Origin: a virus
Taxonomy: Duplodnaviria; Heunggongvirae; Uroviricota; Caudoviricetes
DNA: 46,250 nucleotides
Strand: one strand, 5' to 3'
Virus record (IMG/VR): IMGVR_UViG_2718218453_000004
Shown here: piece after piece, positions 4,187 to 19,222 of the stretch
Layout: every line of letters starts with the position of its first letter
Numbering within the stretch: the first letter of the stretch is position 1
The notes under the pieces: model-generated
The model's database searches: none
Told to the model about the DNA's origin: nothing
The model's input: the letters and a program-made list of their open reading frames with translations, nothing else
Position numbers and translations under genes: made by a program

Positions 4187-4378
4187 TTAAAGACCTGCCG
4201 AGATTTCGATATTATCCTGGTTAATAACTTTATCGACCGGGTAACAGTTACCGGGAATTTTCTGTTCGGTTGCTGCAGTCATACACTCCTGCATTGTCCT
4301 GTGAACACTGACTGCAATATCAACTGGCACTCCGGAAACAAGAAAAACTGTCAGAACAAGCGCAAATGCTGAATTCAT
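4187..4378 (-). CDS. ydfD: YdfD-like small lysis/membrane protein (about 63 aa)
   Basis: MNSAFALVLTVFLVSGVPVDIAVSVH... has a hydrophobic N-terminus and sits directly downstream of dicB as in Qin. Start taken at the internal Met of the ORF-track entry. Confidence 0.7.
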   Translation of the reverse strand: MNSAFALVLTVFLVSGVPVDIAVSVHRTMQECMTAATEQKIPGNCYPVDKVINQDNIEISAGL

Positions 4379-4563
4379 TGTGCACATCCTTTTGGCATCA
4401 GACGTAAACGAGCCAGCATTGAAACAATGCATATTTTATTTAATAGCTCCCGTTCTTGTTTTCTCTTGTTAATGGCATCTTCAGTAAATACAGGGTTACT
4501 GATAGTGACACCAATTTCAAAACAACCTTCAGACGTATTAACGTTTGGTAATAACGTTTTCAT
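4375..4563 (-). CDS. dicB: Cell-division inhibitor DicB (62 aa)
   Basis: MKTLLPNVNTSEGCFEIGVTISNPVFTEDAINKRKQERELLNKICIVSMLARLRLMPKGCAQ matches DicB as recalled. Start is the internal Met of the 97-aa ORF-track entry. Confidence 0.85.
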   Translation of the reverse strand: MKTLLPNVNTSEGCFEIGVTISNPVFTEDAINKRKQERELLNKICIVSMLARLRLMPKGCAQ

Positions 4564-4735: not shown

Positions 4736-4790
4736 AACGGCGGCAGAGCAGTCACGGAGTAAAACTGATACCGCCAAACGTCACCAGAAA
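4736..4790 (-). ncRNA. dicF: DicF small regulatory RNA
   Basis: The reverse complement reads TTTCTGGTGACGTTTGGCGGTATCAGTTTTACTCCGTGACTGCTCTGCCGCC followed by GTTTTT, matching the DicF sequence as recalled, in the expected position upstream of dicB. Confidence 0.8.
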
Positions 4791-5049: not shown

Positions 5050-5625
5050 TTAAGGATTCATTAAGCAATGTCGCAACCACCAATAAATCCGCTTAAGAAC
5101 ATGAAAATTGATTACTGGTATAAAGCGCTTACAGTTGTTGGCGCTGCGTTGTTTGTCTTTAATGGAACGTCTTTTTTTGACAGATATCCCGTTGTTCCAT
5201 TGGGTTTTTTGTCCTCCGGCATCTTTTTTATTGGTTTGGGGGAGTGGATTAATCACCCTCTCAAAGTGAGATTTATTGGCCCTGGAGTTTGGACTCGTGG
5301 ATATAATCGTTCTTCGTGCGCACTCGGTATCATCTTCGACATACTTGGTTGTTTCCTGATTGTTACAGGAGTCGTCAAGTTCTTCTGATGTAAAACCGCA
5401 AATGGGGCACGTAACGGGAATTTTGAAAAGCGTTTCTCCGGGTTCCAGAACAAAATTTTCTGCGGTCTGATTTTGCTTCTCATATTTGTGCTCCGCGTCA
5501 TTGTGAGAGCACATTCTTATTCTGAGTGCCTGTTTAAACTCACTGAAGCTGAGAGCTTCTTCGCCTTCGGCAAGGCCTTCGAAGTATTCTTCGTAAGCCT
5601 TTTCCATGATTGTGTCGAAATCCAT
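5050..5625 (-). CDS. Early-left ORF (ydfB/ydfC-like region, CxxC zinc-ribbon motif); extent uncertain
   Basis: Open frame begins at a Met just after the ydfA stop (MDFDTIMEKAYEEYFEGLAEG...PVTCPICGF...). The C-terminal half is K/R/N-rich and overlaps a forward ORF, so the true end may be shorter or the locus frameshifted. Confidence 0.4.
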   Translation of the reverse strand: MDFDTIMEKAYEEYFEGLAEGEEALSFSEFKQALRIRMCSHNDAEHKYEKQNQTAENFVLEPGETLFKIPVTCPICGFTSEELDDSCNNQETTKYVEDDTECARRTIISTSPNSRANKSHFERVINPLPQTNKKDAGGQKTQWNNGISVKKRRSIKDKQRSANNCKRFIPVINFHVLKRIYWWLRHCLMNP

Positions 5626-5626
5626 A

Positions 5627-5782
5627 TCACTCACCTGAGTTTCTTTCCAGCCAGCGACGGGCACCATTTTCGGTTTTAAACGTTTTGCTTTTGGTATACG
5701 TCATCGCGGTGAACGTGCCGTCCTGGTTGGGGAACACGCCACATACCAGAGATTCGCTGTTGCCAAGATCGATAGTATCCAT
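5627..5782 (-). CDS. ydfA: YdfA-like small protein (51 aa)
   Basis: MDTIDLGNSESLVCGVFPNQDGTFTAMTYTKSKTFKTENGARRWLERNSGE, first gene after the repressor in the leftward operon, as ydfA in Qin. Confidence 0.6.
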   Translation of the reverse strand: MDTIDLGNSESLVCGVFPNQDGTFTAMTYTKSKTFKTENGARRWLERNSGE

Positions 5783-5896
5783 GCTGACCTCATTTCCCCT
5801 TAACGCCGGGGTAGCGGAACTGTTTGCTGAGAACACCGTGCGGTGTCTTGATGGAAAGTAATTTAGAATAACCTAACATGAGAGGCAAGTGTTTTT

Positions 5897-5914
5897 TGTT
5901 AGATTAGTCTAACA
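5897..5914. promoter_or_regulatory. Putative repressor operator, OL-like (TGTTAGA-N4-TCTAACA)
   Basis: 18-bp palindrome tgttagattagtctaaca downstream of the repressor gene and upstream of the leftward operon. The same arms recur between the repressor and cro-like genes. Confidence 0.5.
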
Positions 5915-5950
5915 AAAAGAGTGGGCGCAACTAATCACTTGAAAAGAATG

Positions 5951-6358
5951 TTATTTTATTGATTTATTTTTACGCGCTTTAAGCATTTCTTCGAAGAGTT
6001 TGTTGAAGTTTTCTACTCTTGCGCGCATTTCAGACAGCAAGGCTTCCTGCTCGGAAGATGGAAGAGCATCGAATAATTCGATCAATTCTTTGTGGTTGGG
6101 AGTTAGCTCTGTTTCCACATGAAGTTCTTGTGCAGGCACTGGTGCCTTGTCTTCGTCACCAAACATTAGCCATGTAGGTGAGCACTTCAGAGCATCCGCT
6201 AAAGCAAACAATCGTTTTCCGACTGGCTGGGTTTCGTCTCTTTCCCATTGTGAAATTGTGACGTGAGCAACTCCAGCGAGGCGCGCAGCTTCTCGTTGTG
6301 TTAAGCGTAATTCTTTTCGTCGCGCCAGAACTCGCTGGCCTAGGGTTCTTGTATCCAT
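5951..6358 (-). CDS. dicA: cI/DicA-like HTH (XRE family) repressor
   Basis: 135-aa protein with an N-terminal HTH (LRLTQREAARLAGVAHVTISQWE) and a C-terminus (MRARVENFNKLFEEMLKARK) resembling DicA. Divergent from the Cro-like gene. Confidence 0.85.
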   Translation of the reverse strand: MDTRTLGQRVLARRKELRLTQREAARLAGVAHVTISQWERDETQPVGKRLFALADALKCSPTWLMFGDEDKAPVPAQELHVETELTPNHKELIELFDALPSSEQEALLSEMRARVENFNKLFEEMLKARKNKSIK

Positions 6359-6380
6359 AGTTAGGTAATTCTAATTTTTC

Positions 6381-6425
6381 TTGACTTAGATATCCCGCGC
6401 ACAATAATGTTAGAAAAGTCTAACA
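6381..6425 (+). promoter_or_regulatory. PR-like promoter (TTGACT-18-TAATGT) overlapped by operator palindrome tgttagaaaagtctaaca
   Basis: -35 TTGACT at 6381-6386, -10 TAATGT at about 6405-6410, palindrome at 6408-6425, immediately upstream of the dicC-like start. Confidence 0.5.
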
Positions 6426-6435
6426 AGAGGGGGCT

Positions 6436-6666
6436 TTGATGCTTAAAGTTGACGCAATTACTTTTTTTGGCAGCAAAACAAAGCTTGCCAATGCCGCAGG
6501 AGTGAGACTGGCAAGTGTTGCTGCTTGGGGGATACTGGTTCCTGAAGGTCGCGCGATGCGTCTACAGGAGGCATCTGGCGGGGAGCTTCTGTATGATCCC
6601 AAGGTTTATGACGAATATCGTAAGACGAAGCGGGCGGGGCGGTTGAACAATGAAAATCACTCCTGA
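6436..6666 (+). CDS. dicC: Cro-like regulator DicC (76 aa)
   Basis: MMLKVDAITFFGSKTKLANAAGVRLAS...RAMRLQEASGGELLYDPKVYDEYRKTKRAGRLNNENHS matches DicC as recalled. Confidence 0.85.
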   Translation: MMLKVDAITFFGSKTKLANAAGVRLASVAAWGILVPEGRAMRLQEASGGELLYDPKVYDEYRKTKRAGRLNNENHS

Positions 6667-7171
6667 ACAGGCTCGTGAGGCTCTGGATGCCTGGATATGT
6701 CGACCAGGAATGACACAGGAGCAGGCGACGATATTAATCACTGAAGCATTCTGGGCTTTGAAAGAGCGCCCGAACATCGATGTTCAGCGTGTCACAGATG
6801 AAGGTGGCGCGGTTGATCAGCGAGCGCTTGGCGTTAATCGAGTGAAGATATTCGAACGCTGGAAGGCTATCGACACCAGGGATAAGCGTGAAAAGTTCAC
6901 GGCGCTAGTGCCTGCAATTATGGAGGCTATCCGGATTAATGATTTCAGGTTGTATCGTGAAATTAGTGACGGAAAAAGCATCACGTACATGATCGCCGGG
7001 TTAAACAAAGAATATGGCGATGTGGTGGAGTCCGGACTGCTTTTTGCTGATCCTGCCGTAGTGGATCGTGAAACTGACGAACTTATAGAAAAAGCAATTG
7101 CTTTCAAACTTGCGTATCGACAGCAATACCAACAAAAAGCTGGATGGAATTATGAGCCTTCTTTTTGCTGA
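6650..7171 (+). CDS. Hypothetical protein in the cII position (173 aa)
   Basis: ORF overlapping the dicC stop and preceding the replication initiator. Function not recognisable by eye. Confidence 0.6.
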   Translation: MKITPEQAREALDAWICRPGMTQEQATILITEAFWALKERPNIDVQRVTDEGGAVDQRALGVNRVKIFERWKAIDTRDKREKFTALVPAIMEAIRINDFRLYREISDGKSITYMIAGLNKEYGDVVESGLLFADPAVVDRETDELIEKAIAFKLAYRQQYQQKAGWNYEPSFC

Positions 7172-8789: not shown

Positions 8790-10577
8790 TTAAGTCTGAG
8801 CCTCACTCTCTTGGCCATAAGTGGCTTGCCAGTATCTCGCCGTAGGGTTCATTAGAATGTGCAATACAAGCCACCATGCAAAAATGCAGGGAGGTTGATT
8901 GTAGTAACCGGCAGGCACATATCCGTGAGCTAGTTGATTTCGTAAATCACCATAGATTTTATCTACCAGTAAGGCCTGAAGATTGCCAATTATGTCTACG
9001 CCGAAAGCTTCAATAATCAGTGGATTATCTAGTAATCCCTTGAGTCCATTTCGCTCTTGCGAACCGTCCCCGTGAAGCTGCGATGGTTCCTCACCTTTAA
9101 TTTTAGCCACATATCTCAGACTATTTTCGAGCTGGGGAATCAACACGTGGCATGCCGTCATAAAATCTCCATTGAAACCGCAAACCATACCCTTGATGAA
9201 AAACTCTTCATGCCCAAACGGGATGAAGGGATGATTGATGAACATATCGCGAAAAAACGCCTCCGAGATTGGATATTTCATTGTGATCTCATCTGTAGCA
9301 GGAATAATTTGCCCAGCTACTGCCAACTCATGGTCGATACGCATTCTCGTCATCATTATGGGCCAAATAACTGCCCCATTTGCATCATCAATCCCCAATC
9401 CTGCGGGTATGCGAGCAAGTGTCATTCCCTCATGATCAATATGTGTTGATCCAAACATCCAAGCTATGCTGTTGGCCTTTTGTTCTATTGCTTGAGCCTT
9501 AAGTCTCTCAATGCTGGTTGGCCGACAGACCAGCATCGCAAGTCTGAAAACCATATCAAACAAATCTCTTCCGACTACCCGACTCTTGGCTTGATGGACA
9601 ATCTCACTAATATCTTGAGGGGGAGACTGAAGGATAGACATCTGGTGACGGGATTCGATTTGGTAATCACGCATTTCTTCATACAGCGCAAGACGTTCTA
9701 TTCGGGTTCCTGGAATATTAGCCAGTGCTTCAATAGCATTCTGCATGCAGGCTGCCGAAATCATACCGCCATCTTGGAATTTTGACTCTTCCAGATGTGT
9801 ATCGGCAAGAAGCCGCCAGAATTCAAACTGTGTATCTCTGTCACAGCACCTATTCGCAATCGGGATTGCGGTTTTACAGGCATCGACGGCAAATGAAAAT
9901 AATTTTTGAGCCAGATAGTTTTTTGTCAGAAACAGGAGTTCCTGGGCAATAAAAGATGGCTCACTCACTTTACAGTCGATATCGAGTTGCAGGAGTCGCA
10001 GCGGATAAGGTGAATCGCCTTGTTCTCTGGTACGTTCATACTCTGCTAGTAGATGTGCCGAAAGCTGATCAAATTCATCCCTGAAATCAGTATGCTTTCG
10101 AAAAAAACAACACAGCCTAAGCGCACGCTCTAGGCGTTCTAAAGCACTAACCCACGTCCCTTGCGATGTCATAATAGCTATACTGGACGCATAATAAGCA
10201 CGGACTGCCAGCAAAGGAAAACGGATTCCACCAATTTTACGAACCCAAAGTGTATCAGCAATACGAGCTTGAAGTTCGGGTAGCTCTATCGTCGGGCAAA
10301 ATTGAGAAAGTACCTCCAGCGACAACCCGTTAATGTCATCCGGAATTGCAGATCTACCTTGGCTGCTTTGAAAGCACGGACCAAATGGTACCTGTGGATT
10401 TTCGGGACGAAAGTGAAAACCGCAAATATGGGTTAGCAGTCTTATCTCCGCTCTTCCATCACCTAGGCTAGAAAGATACTTTGTGATATCAAAGCAGGTA
10501 ACTGGCAGCTTACTCTGGATTAAGGGGGATAAATCAATAGTGTTAAGTTCGTCGAGGCTGATATTAATATCGTCCAT
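8790..10577 (-). CDS. Large accessory protein with C-terminal HEPN-like RNase motif (R-x4-H-x-Y); candidate abortive-infection/defence effector
   Basis: 595-aa ORF on the opposite strand to the surrounding rightward operon. RNQLAHGY near the C-terminus (encoded at 8925..8942) fits the HEPN/HepT-type Rx4-6H motif. Visibly AT-richer than flanking genes (by eye, not computed). Occupies the slot where K-12 Qin has relBE beside hok. Confidence 0.6.
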   Translation of the reverse strand: MDDINISLDELNTIDLSPLIQSKLPVTCFDITKYLSSLGDGRAEIRLLTHICGFHFRPENPQVPFGPCFQSSQGRSAIPDDINGLSLEVLSQFCPTIELPELQARIADTLWVRKIGGIRFPLLAVRAYYASSIAIMTSQGTWVSALERLERALRLCCFFRKHTDFRDEFDQLSAHLLAEYERTREQGDSPYPLRLLQLDIDCKVSEPSFIAQELLFLTKNYLAQKLFSFAVDACKTAIPIANRCCDRDTQFEFWRLLADTHLEESKFQDGGMISAACMQNAIEALANIPGTRIERLALYEEMRDYQIESRHQMSILQSPPQDISEIVHQAKSRVVGRDLFDMVFRLAMLVCRPTSIERLKAQAIEQKANSIAWMFGSTHIDHEGMTLARIPAGLGIDDANGAVIWPIMMTRMRIDHELAVAGQIIPATDEITMKYPISEAFFRDMFINHPFIPFGHEEFFIKGMVCGFNGDFMTACHVLIPQLENSLRYVAKIKGEEPSQLHGDGSQERNGLKGLLDNPLIIEAFGVDIIGNLQALLVDKIYGDLRNQLAHGYVPAGYYNQPPCIFAWWLVLHILMNPTARYWQATYGQESEAQT

Positions 10578-11040: not shown

Positions 11041-11251
11041 TTTCACATTGGCGAGGTAACGGTAGTTAAGTAGAATGGCTGCGGGTGCTTGAGGCTATCT
11101 GCCTCGGGCATGAACACCAACGGCAGATAGAGAAAAGCCCCAGTTAACATTACGCGTCCTGCAAGACGCTTAACATTAATCTGAGGCCAATTTCATGCTA
11201 GACATATGTAGGTTAGCCTCTTACGTGCCGAAAGGCAAGGAGAAGCAGGCT

Positions 11252-11407
11252 ATGAAGCAGCAAAAGGCGATGTTAATCGCCCTGATCGTCATCTGTTTAA
11301 CCGTCATAGTGACGGCACTGGTAACGAGGAAAGACCTCTGCGAGGTACGAATCCGAACCGGCCAGACGGAGGTCGCTGTCTTCACAGCTTACGAACCTGA
11401 GGAGTAA
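11252..11407 (+). CDS. hokD: Hok/Gef-family type I toxin (51 aa)
   Basis: MKQQKAMLIALIVICLTVIVTALVTRKDLCEVRIRTGQTEVAVFTAYEPEE matches the Hok family and RelF/HokD as recalled. SD AAGGAG upstream. An in-frame upstream ATG (11195) gives the 70-aa ORF-track entry (mok-like). Confidence 0.9.
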   Translation: MKQQKAMLIALIVICLTVIVTALVTRKDLCEVRIRTGQTEVAVFTAYEPEE

Positions 11408-11623: not shown

Positions 11624-11875
11624 ATGATGAACATCGAAGAATTGCGTAAAATTTTTTGTGAAGATGGCCTCTATGCTGTGTGCGTTGAAAATGGAAATCT
11701 TGTTAGTCATTACCGCATTATGTGTTTGCGAAAGAATGGGGCTGCGTTAATTAATTTTGTGGATGGTCGAGTGACAGACGGATTTATCTTGCGCGAAGGT
11801 GAGTTTGTCACTTCATTACAGGCACTGAAAGAGATCGGAATAAAAGCAGGCTTTTTAGCTTTTGCAGAAGAATAA
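11624..11875 (+). CDS. rem: Rem-like small protein (83 aa)
   Basis: 83-aa ORF directly after hok, the position and size of Qin rem. Confidence 0.6.
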   Translation: MMNIEELRKIFCEDGLYAVCVENGNLVSHYRIMCLRKNGAALINFVDGRVTDGFILREGEFVTSLQALKEIGIKAGFLAFAEE

Positions 11876-18811: not shown

Positions 18812-19222
18812 TTAGCGTGGTAAGATCTGTGTAGTTTTCTGGATGCTTTCAGTAAATAGTAATGAGTTATCAAAGGCATAGTAATATCTTTGGTGTTCCT
18901 GGATATTTGTAACCCATCGGAAAACTCCTGCTTTAGCAAGATTTTCCCTGTATTGTTGAAATGTGATTTCTTTTGATTTCAACTTATTATAGGAGGTCTC
19001 TATAAGATGTTTGTTTCTGGAGAATTTAACATTTACAACCTTTTTGAGTCCTTTTACTAACACTATGTTGTCGTTTTCTAACACAATGTGAATATTATCT
19101 GTGGCTAAATAGTAAATATAAAGTGAGACATTGTGACGTTTTAGCTCAGAATAAAATAATTCACAGTTTAAATCTTTACGCACTTGATCGAATATTTCTT
19201 TAAAAATGGCAGCCTGAGCCAT
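18812..19222 (-). CDS. ydfO: YdfO-like protein (DUF1398-type)
   Basis: About 136 aa from the internal Met, in the Qin-equivalent position. Confidence 0.6.

Follow-up and report, generated by a model that had tools for sequence, protein, structure and literature searches.

The stretch of DNA analysed here (the window, 46,250 bp) contains a 1-kb immunity region that is 100% identical to many Escherichia coli chromosomes, ATCC 25922 among them. The ATCC 25922 counterpart is a prophage inserted beside rspB, in which the annotated gene order is integrase, excisionase, exonuclease, ydfD, dicB, ydfB, ydfA, HTH protein, Cro/CI regulator, YdaT-family protein, hokD, rem, ydfU and ydfT. Both the gene order and the chromosomal position are the same as those of the cryptic prophage Qin of E. 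coli K-12, and by its sequence the window is identified as a Qin-like lambdoid prophage beside rspB. A link to the small RNA svsR of the NC-SV prophage (PMC12803456) was considered and ruled out, as that prophage is located at icd and has a different repressor.

The gene at 5951-6358 (minus strand) encodes a DicA-family repressor of 135 aa, with an N-terminal HTH_3 domain and a helical C-terminal part. The protein matches the NCBIfam DicA model NF007257 with 224.7 bits (cutoff 101) over residues 1-134 of 135, and is 57% identical to K-12 DicA. HTH_3 was the only domain found in a Pfam search of the repressor, with no match to Peptidase_S24 or any other peptidase domain; K-12 DicA is reported to lack the Ala-Gly cleavage bond (PMC10448788). 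The N-terminal domain (residues 1-71) matches the P22 c2 repressor structures 1adr and 2r1j (E = 1e-18), and the alignment showed that the equivalents of V33 and Q37 of P22 c2 are conserved.

Divergent from the repressor gene, a Cro-like regulator of 75 aa is encoded at 6439-6666 (plus strand). This protein belongs to the DicC family (NCBIfam NF007282, 163.5 bits, cutoff 130; Pfam P22_Cro) and is 84% identical to K-12 DicC. The DicA/DicC scaffold proposed in the first-pass annotation is thus borne out, with both NCBIfam models passed over the full length. The second gene of the rightward operon (6650-7171, plus strand) encodes a YdaT-family protein, as shown by a match to Pfam YdaT_toxin (26.1 bits, cutoff 21) and by the RefSeq annotation of an identical sequence. 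YdaT-family proteins are the CII analogue in related prophages.

Downstream of the repressor gene and co-directional with it is a dicBF-type operon, whose first gene is ydfA (5627-5782, minus strand; Pfam DUF1391, E = 9e-28), also annotated as ydfA in ATCC 25922. The DicF small RNA is encoded inside this leftward operon (4738-4789, minus strand; Rfam RF00039, 72.5 bits against a gathering score of 48). The cell-division inhibitor gene dicB (4375-4563, minus strand), the repressed cargo of the operon, was assigned by its 62-aa translation and the annotation of dicB in ATCC 25922, and ydfD is annotated at the matching ATCC 25922 position.

The gene rem (11624-11875, plus strand) encodes a protein of 83 aa that is 95% identical to K-12 Rem. 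In K-12, Rem is encoded by Qin and derepresses dicBp 165-fold (Ragunathan and Vanderpool, PMC10448788), and by analogy the product of rem in the window is likely an antirepressor that relieves DicA-type repression. The whole window contains no LexA box, either with up to three mismatches to the full consensus or as CTGT-N8-ACAG, so that there is no sign of the antirepressor being under SOS control.

Probable operators and predicted promoters of the immunity region

The first-pass annotation had reported two copies of the palindrome TGTTAGA-N4-TCTAACA, at 5897-5914 and 6408-6425. An exact-match search confirmed these as the only copies in the whole 46,250-bp window. They bracket the 135-aa HTH open reading frame, and the 75-aa Cro-like open reading frame begins at 6439 on the plus strand. 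None of 100 dinucleotide-preserving shuffles of the window contained a copy, which rules out a chance origin of both palindromes. The bare heptamer is present six times in the window versus 4.1 expected, and since four of the six are arms of the two palindromes, it is not enriched elsewhere. The motif search for further half-sites, which had been suggested together with the palindromes, revealed an imperfect third site at 5861-5878, with two mismatches to TGTTAG-N6-CTAACA. Outside the immunity sites, a scan of the window at up to two mismatches gave a single match to this pattern, at 19066-19083; with 1.3 such matches expected, it is consistent with chance and was rejected as a further regulon site.

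The right-hand site, OR1 (TGTTAGAAAAGTCTAACA, 6408-6425), is an exact palindrome and the homologue of the K-12 operator Oc, with which it aligns column for column. Oc was defined in K-12 as TTGTTAGTCATAACTAACAA (Yun et al., PMC3441716), and is the only DicA site with evidence of binding in vivo, this binding being dicA-dependent (PMC3441716). DicA binding is lost when one A in the CTAACA arm of Oc is changed to C, and Oc was clonable on multicopy plasmids only when mutated, which the authors explained by titration of DicA (PMC3441716). Bound at Oc, DicA represses dicC and activates dicA (PMC3441716).

A sigma-70-like promoter for the rightward dicC-like/ydaT-like operon is predicted at 6381-6408 (plus strand), with the –35 element TTGACT (6381-6386), a 16-bp spacer and the –10 element AATAAT (6403-6408). 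This promoter agrees with the consensus at 10 of 12 positions and is the sole sigma-70-like match in a promoter scan of 5600-6700. OR1 begins on the last base of the –10 element and covers the predicted start site. K-12 dicCp has the same geometry (TTGACT-17-TATCTT, with Oc beginning within its –10). The site had earlier been placed over the –10 of a promoter read as TTGACT-18-TAATGT; the overlap with the –10 stands, but TTGACT-16-AATAAT is the better reading of the promoter itself.

A degenerate site resembling K-12 Oa (AGTTAGGTAATTCTAATT, 6360-6377) is located directly upstream of the repressor start codon, and its position at –18 is kept in loci with window-type and K-12-type repressors. 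The Oa-like site is possibly an OR3-like autoregulatory site or one preferred by DicC. The weaker sites Om and Oa predicted in K-12 showed no DicA binding in vivo according to the authors, whose data are not shown (PMC3441716), and the weak sites in the window may likewise be non-functional.

The left-hand site, OL1 (TGTTAGATTAGTCTAACA, 5897-5914), is also an exact palindrome, and follows the repressor stop codon, ahead of the –35 element of the putative leftward promoter. In an alignment of the spacers between repressor gene and ydfA it corresponds to the weaker K-12 site TGTTAGCTATAGCATACA. The imperfect third site, OL2 (ATTTAGAATAACCTAACA, or TGTTAGGTTATTCTAAAT on the repressor strand; 5861-5878), aligns with K-12 TGTTAGTCATGGCTAATC, and it fills the spacer between the –35 and –10 elements of a dicBp-like promoter and overlaps the –10. 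This putative promoter (5860-5888, minus strand) consists of the –35 element TTGCCT (5888-5883), a 17-bp spacer and the –10 element TAAATT (5865-5860); with 8 of 12 consensus positions it falls below the threshold of the promoter scan, and it was placed by alignment with K-12 alone (TTGACC-17-TAATCT).

OL1 sits 8 bp upstream of the predicted –35 element, outside the core promoter, and so would not occlude RNA polymerase by itself. The spacing of 36 bp between OL1 and OL2 corresponds to ~3.4 helical turns, which would put the two sites on different faces of the DNA and makes simple side-by-side cooperativity uncertain. The description of OL1 as an OL-like site holds for its location downstream of the repressor gene and at the leftward early promoter, but needs refining in that OL1 itself is upstream of the –35 while a second, weaker site lies over the core. 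In K-12, the promoter dicBp lies upstream of ydfA and is under strong repression by DicA (PMC10448788), and a Reg-Seq compilation lists the place where DicA binds at K-12 dicB as unknown or of low evidence (PMC7567609).

Conservation of the probable operators in related loci

Related loci were collected from genomes of Escherichia ruysiae, E. albertii, Citrobacter, Buttiauxella, Enterobacter, Pantoea and Erwinia and from 320 IMG/VR viral contigs, and after removal of duplicates comprised 61 distinct window-type, 48 K-12-type and 51 C-type loci. All 61 window-type and 48 K-12-type loci, and 49 distinct loci of the C type, have OR1 at –67/–68 relative to the ATG of the repressor gene. OL1 follows the stop codon of the repressor gene at about +36 in both the window and the K-12 type; in the 50 distinct window-type loci that have it there, its hexamers are constant and its centre varies. 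OL2 is kept in every class at +72, 35-36 bp from OL1. The positions of the sites and the OL1-OL2 spacing are conserved over three repressor classes and six genera.

The outer hexamers TGTTAG/CTAACA are constant across the 61 distinct loci of the window type, with no variation at positions 2-6 and 13-17 of OR1 and OL1, and positions 8-11 each take two to three states, the OL1 centre occurring as CTAA, TCAA, CCAA, TTGA, TAAA and CAAA. Invariant arms around a free centre indicate contact with a protein, the signature of an operator, and not RNA pairing. From the sequence matches and this pattern of conservation, we consider it highly probable that the two palindromes serve the immunity switch of this Qin-like lambdoid prophage as its high-affinity operators.

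The C type occurs in Enterobacter, Pantoea and Erwinia and in 751 E. coli genomes. Its OR1 is CCTTAG-N6-CTAAGG, and its OL1 and OL2 are shifted jointly towards a CTTAG half-site. These operators accompany a P22 c2-like repressor helix 2, SQAALGKLVK, so that protein and site covary. Judged by this pattern, a clearly different specificity exists on the same scaffold in other prophages.

Immunity specificity and alternative roles of the sites

The first-pass annotation had noted that the HTH of the repressor differs from that of K-12 DicA, and had suggested a distinct immunity specificity. The difference is real: the 57% identity of the whole protein falls to 48% for the DNA-binding domain and 40% for helix 2, while helix 3 is 64% identical. 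The suggestion that it builds a distinct specificity is only partly supported, as the HTH and the inner positions 7-9 of the half-site differ from K-12, but the outer hexamer is that of Oc and there is little change in the recognition helix (AHVTISQWER in the window, SHVSVSQWER in K-12 DicA). The prophage would be heteroimmune to the K-12 type if its repressor and DicC discriminate via positions 7-9 and the centre despite the common TGTTAG, a tentative reading to which we give somewhat less than an even chance.

Several patterns argue for such discrimination. At half-site position 7, 37 of 38 half-sites of the window type have a purine, whereas all 32 of the K-12 type have a pyrimidine; at positions 8-9, every K-12-type site reads Y-A and the window type varies. 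The low identities of the DNA-binding domain and of helix 2 to K-12 DicA point the same way, as does the recognition helix of DicC (VRLASVAAW in the window versus IRLASLYSW in K-12). Aligned with E44 of P22 c2, which is near the central minor groove (PMC5175364), is an E in K-12 DicA, as against a Q in the window and C types. However, the outer hexamer TGTTAG/CTAACA is identical to that of Oc, including the base whose mutation abolishes DicA binding, and the differences in helix 3 are only conservative. Within a class, position 7 changes nearly always by transition, with one T among the 38 window-type half-sites, and the purine/pyrimidine split may therefore reflect shared ancestry and not selection. 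A T at this position is also tolerated in Citrobacter relatives with the same helix 3. The inner-position patterns are thus compatible with a subtle but real difference in specificity, and equally well with shared ancestry.

The co-residence of repressor types bears on the same point. It was counted by inclusion-exclusion over 5426 complete E. coli genomes, in which the window type is carried by 565, the K-12 type by 851 and the C type by 751. The presence of both window and K-12 types in 23 genomes would favour distinct immunity, but this number is four-fold below the 89 expected under independence (Fisher p = 9e-20), a depletion that homoimmunity would give and that would also follow from the attachment site common to both types and from the abundance of K-12 laboratory strains among these genomes. 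The window and C types occur together in 94 genomes versus 78 expected if independent, and the K-12 and C types in 86 versus 118.

On a wider reading, the window, K-12 and C types would form a natural series in which one P22 c2-like scaffold carries three immunity specificities, and in which the outer dinucleotide (TG versus CC) is read by the repressor, tracking helix 2, while positions 7-9 and the centre are read by DicC, or indirectly via the residue aligned with E44 (Q versus E). We regard this as possible but rather doubtful; if true, the window prophage is heteroimmune to K-12 Qin despite the common TGTTAG hexamer.

Another reading is that the sites are bound mainly by the Cro-like DicC, or by YdaT, and not by the DicA-like repressor. 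Cro shares the operators of the repressor in lambdoid switches, and the DicC proteins of the window and C types have the same HTH, with a T-rich centre and a purine at position 7 in the operators of both types. DicC binding is, however, compatible with repressor binding and does not exclude it, Oc has been assigned to DicA by genetics in K-12 (PMC3441716), and the outer dinucleotide (TG versus CC) tracks helix 2 of the repressor and not DicC. The YdaT box TTGATT-N6-AATCAA is absent from the immunity region. A primary role for DicC or YdaT is therefore very improbable on this evidence; by analogy with lambdoid switches, DicC very probably shares these sites, complementing binding by the repressor.

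It is more improbable still that the palindromes are chiefly RNA hairpins, such as a terminator of the repressor transcript (5893-5918) or a structure in the dicC 5′ leader (6408-6425): although the arms of the left palindrome, just 3′ of the repressor stop codon, extend to 11 bp (TTTTTGTTAGA-N4-TCTAACAAAAA, 5893-5918) and form a hairpin in either transcript direction (z-scores –2.8 and –2.2), its stem is AU-rich with no U-tract after it on either strand, the terminator scan is negative there, the hairpin at the right-hand site lacks significance (z = –1.5), K-12-type OL1 sites at the same position are imperfect palindromes, and variation is confined to the centre without even compensatory double changes in the arms, as expected of protein contact and not base pairing, so that a terminator or hairpin role of the left palindrome was rejected as unlikely.

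Discussion

The operator set is what a DicA/DicC immunity module predicts, and represents an ordinary allelic variant of the switch known from E. coli K-12. With the palindromes read as operators, we propose that a dimer of the DicA-family repressor binds each 18-bp site, with one monomer per TGTTAG hexamer and the central 4-6 bp not read base by base. At OR1, the repressor would cover the edge of the –10 element and the start site, turning off the rightward dicC-like/ydaT-like operon, and by analogy with K-12 it may also stimulate its own transcription. At the left side, the strong OL1 probably helps to load a second dimer on the weaker OL2 within the –35/–10 spacer, and occupancy of OL1 and OL2 together would keep ydfA-DicF-dicB-ydfD silent. 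In addition, OL1 may act as a barrier to transcription running on from the repressor gene. Since the repressor has no autocleavage domain, derepression and induction would, as in K-12, be expected via Rem and via feedback by the DicC-like protein acting on the same sites.

The switch controls DicB and DicF. With a perfect OL1 and a previously overlooked OL2 inside the promoter, the window offers a cleaner model of dicBp repression by DicA than K-12, whose left sites are degenerate. The three operator classes on one scaffold also provide a compact natural system for the co-evolution of specificity between repressor, Cro and operator. The known picture of lambdoid immunity is unchanged by these operators.

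As in lambda CI/Cro, the repressor and cro genes are divergent, and the operators overlap the rightward promoter and control the leftward early promoter; in K-12, DicA/DicC is described as a bistable switch (PMC10448788). Unlike lambda, the protein family and the sequence, number and spacing of the operators differ, the repressor is non-cleavable, and the leftward operon is co-directional with the repressor gene and immediately downstream of it.

The operators of P22 c2 (ATTTAAG-N4-CTTAAAT) share the length of 18 bp, the 7-4-7 geometry and the T-T-A core, and the N-terminal domains of the two repressors are homologous. The central 4 bp of the P22 operator are uncontacted (PMC5175364), and the variable central 4 bp in the window-type sites are consistent with an uncontacted centre. 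The window repressor differs from P22 c2 in having no C-terminal LexA-like autocleavage domain and in the replacement of N32 by H, and the half-site is TGTTAG rather than ATTTAAG. In contrast to P22 c2 and 434-type switches, the window does not have three adjacent similar operators at OR or OL: the right side has one perfect site and a degenerate site 49 bp away, and the left side a perfect and an imperfect site 36 bp apart.

The short repressor without a peptidase domain and the small antirepressor encoded elsewhere on the prophage (here Rem) resemble the Gifsy/Fels-type GfoR/GfoA systems, which differ from the window in that it has no LexA box CTGT-N8-ACAG. The cI-cro-ydaT module, with a YdaT-family protein encoded downstream of the Cro-like gene, is shared with RacR/YdaS/YdaT of Rac and with CI/Cro/CII of CP-933P, but the repressor and Cro families and the operators differ, and the YdaT box is not part of the immunity region here.

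Compared to DicA/DicC of K-12 Qin, position 7 is A/G with a free centre in the window, versus Y-Y-A and a CAT-type centre in K-12, and OL1 is a perfect palindrome, while the K-12 counterpart is degenerate. The two prophages share the rspB side, the order dicC-like, dicA-like, ydfA, DicF, dicB and ydfD, a 135-aa repressor, the operator positions, the outer hexamers TGTTAG-N6-CTAACA and a Rem protein that is 95% identical. The window prophage looks far more complete than K-12 Qin, with an integrase, an excisionase, an exonuclease and a YdaT-like gene.

Operator-like sites and repressor classes

In the leftward dicBp-like promoter, a putative third DicA-type site, ATTTAGAATAACCTAACA (5861-5878), sits between the two inferred core elements, -35 and -10, at a distance of 36 bp from the perfect left palindrome (5897-5914). 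This spacing is kept in all three repressor classes compared, namely the window type, the K-12 type and the C type. The sole further match to TGTTAG-N6-CTAACA in the whole window at up to two mismatches, TGTTGTCGTTTTCTAACA (19066-19083), is probably due to chance. In K-12-type loci (L002 at ~2840-2860, and L106-L185), a perfect 18-bp palindrome, GTTTTAAGCATTTAAAAC, is centred on the dicC start codon; this palindrome is not present in the window type.

The DicA scaffold also carries a third immunity class, the C type, found in the related loci L008-L010 and L186-L265 (for example, positions 601-1008 of L197), with E. coli strain 7/2 (NZ_CP023820.1) as an example genome. Its predicted operators are CCTTAG-N6-CTAAGG, and helix 2 of its repressor, SQAALGKLVK, is P22 c2-like; the helix-turn-helix of its DicC is identical to that of the window type. 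The class occurs in 751 of the 5426 complete E. coli genomes, and C type and window type share a single genome in 94 cases.

Leftward operon and accessory genes

The ydfA 5' untranslated region (5783-5850, minus strand) holds a 14-bp palindrome, ACACCGCACGGTGT (5833-5846), and a CCCC-N8-GGGG hairpin (5796-5811) that adjoins the ydfA ribosome-binding site. Both are unchanged in K-12 despite the diverged sequence directly upstream, and they may act as a nut-like element or form an RNA structure with a regulatory role. Between ydfA and the DicF small RNA (4738-4789, minus strand; Rfam, 72.5 bits) lies an ORF of 191-205 aa (5050-5667, minus strand), for which no Pfam match was found; in K-12 Qin its place is occupied by ydfB and ydfC, and in the ATCC 25922 annotation ydfB is a truncated pseudogene.

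A gene for a 595-aa DUF4209-domain protein (8790-10577, minus strand), situated between the replication-region genes and hokD on the opposite strand, looks like an inserted accessory gene (moron). Besides DicF, the prophage has a sok antitoxin RNA of a hok/sok module at 11083-11257 (plus strand, 112.7 bits).

Induction and repressor expression

The antirepressor gene rem (11624-11875, plus strand) encodes a protein 95% identical to K-12 Rem, whereas its expected target repressor is only 57% identical to K-12 DicA. This suggests either recognition by Rem of the C-terminal half of DicA, which is the better conserved one, or a shuffling of the modules by recombination. Unlike the SOS-controlled Gifsy-type antirepressors, rem shows no sign of SOS control: neither a CTGT-N8-ACAG LexA box nor any near-consensus SOS box was found in the whole window.

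No Shine-Dalgarno sequence is recognisable in the stretch ahead of the repressor gene, at 6359-6377, and a -10-like hexamer, TAGAAT, inside the Oa-like site (6360-6377) ends 9 nt before the repressor ATG. The repressor mRNA may be leaderless, a proposed likeness to the leaderless mRNA of lambda cI transcribed from PRM.
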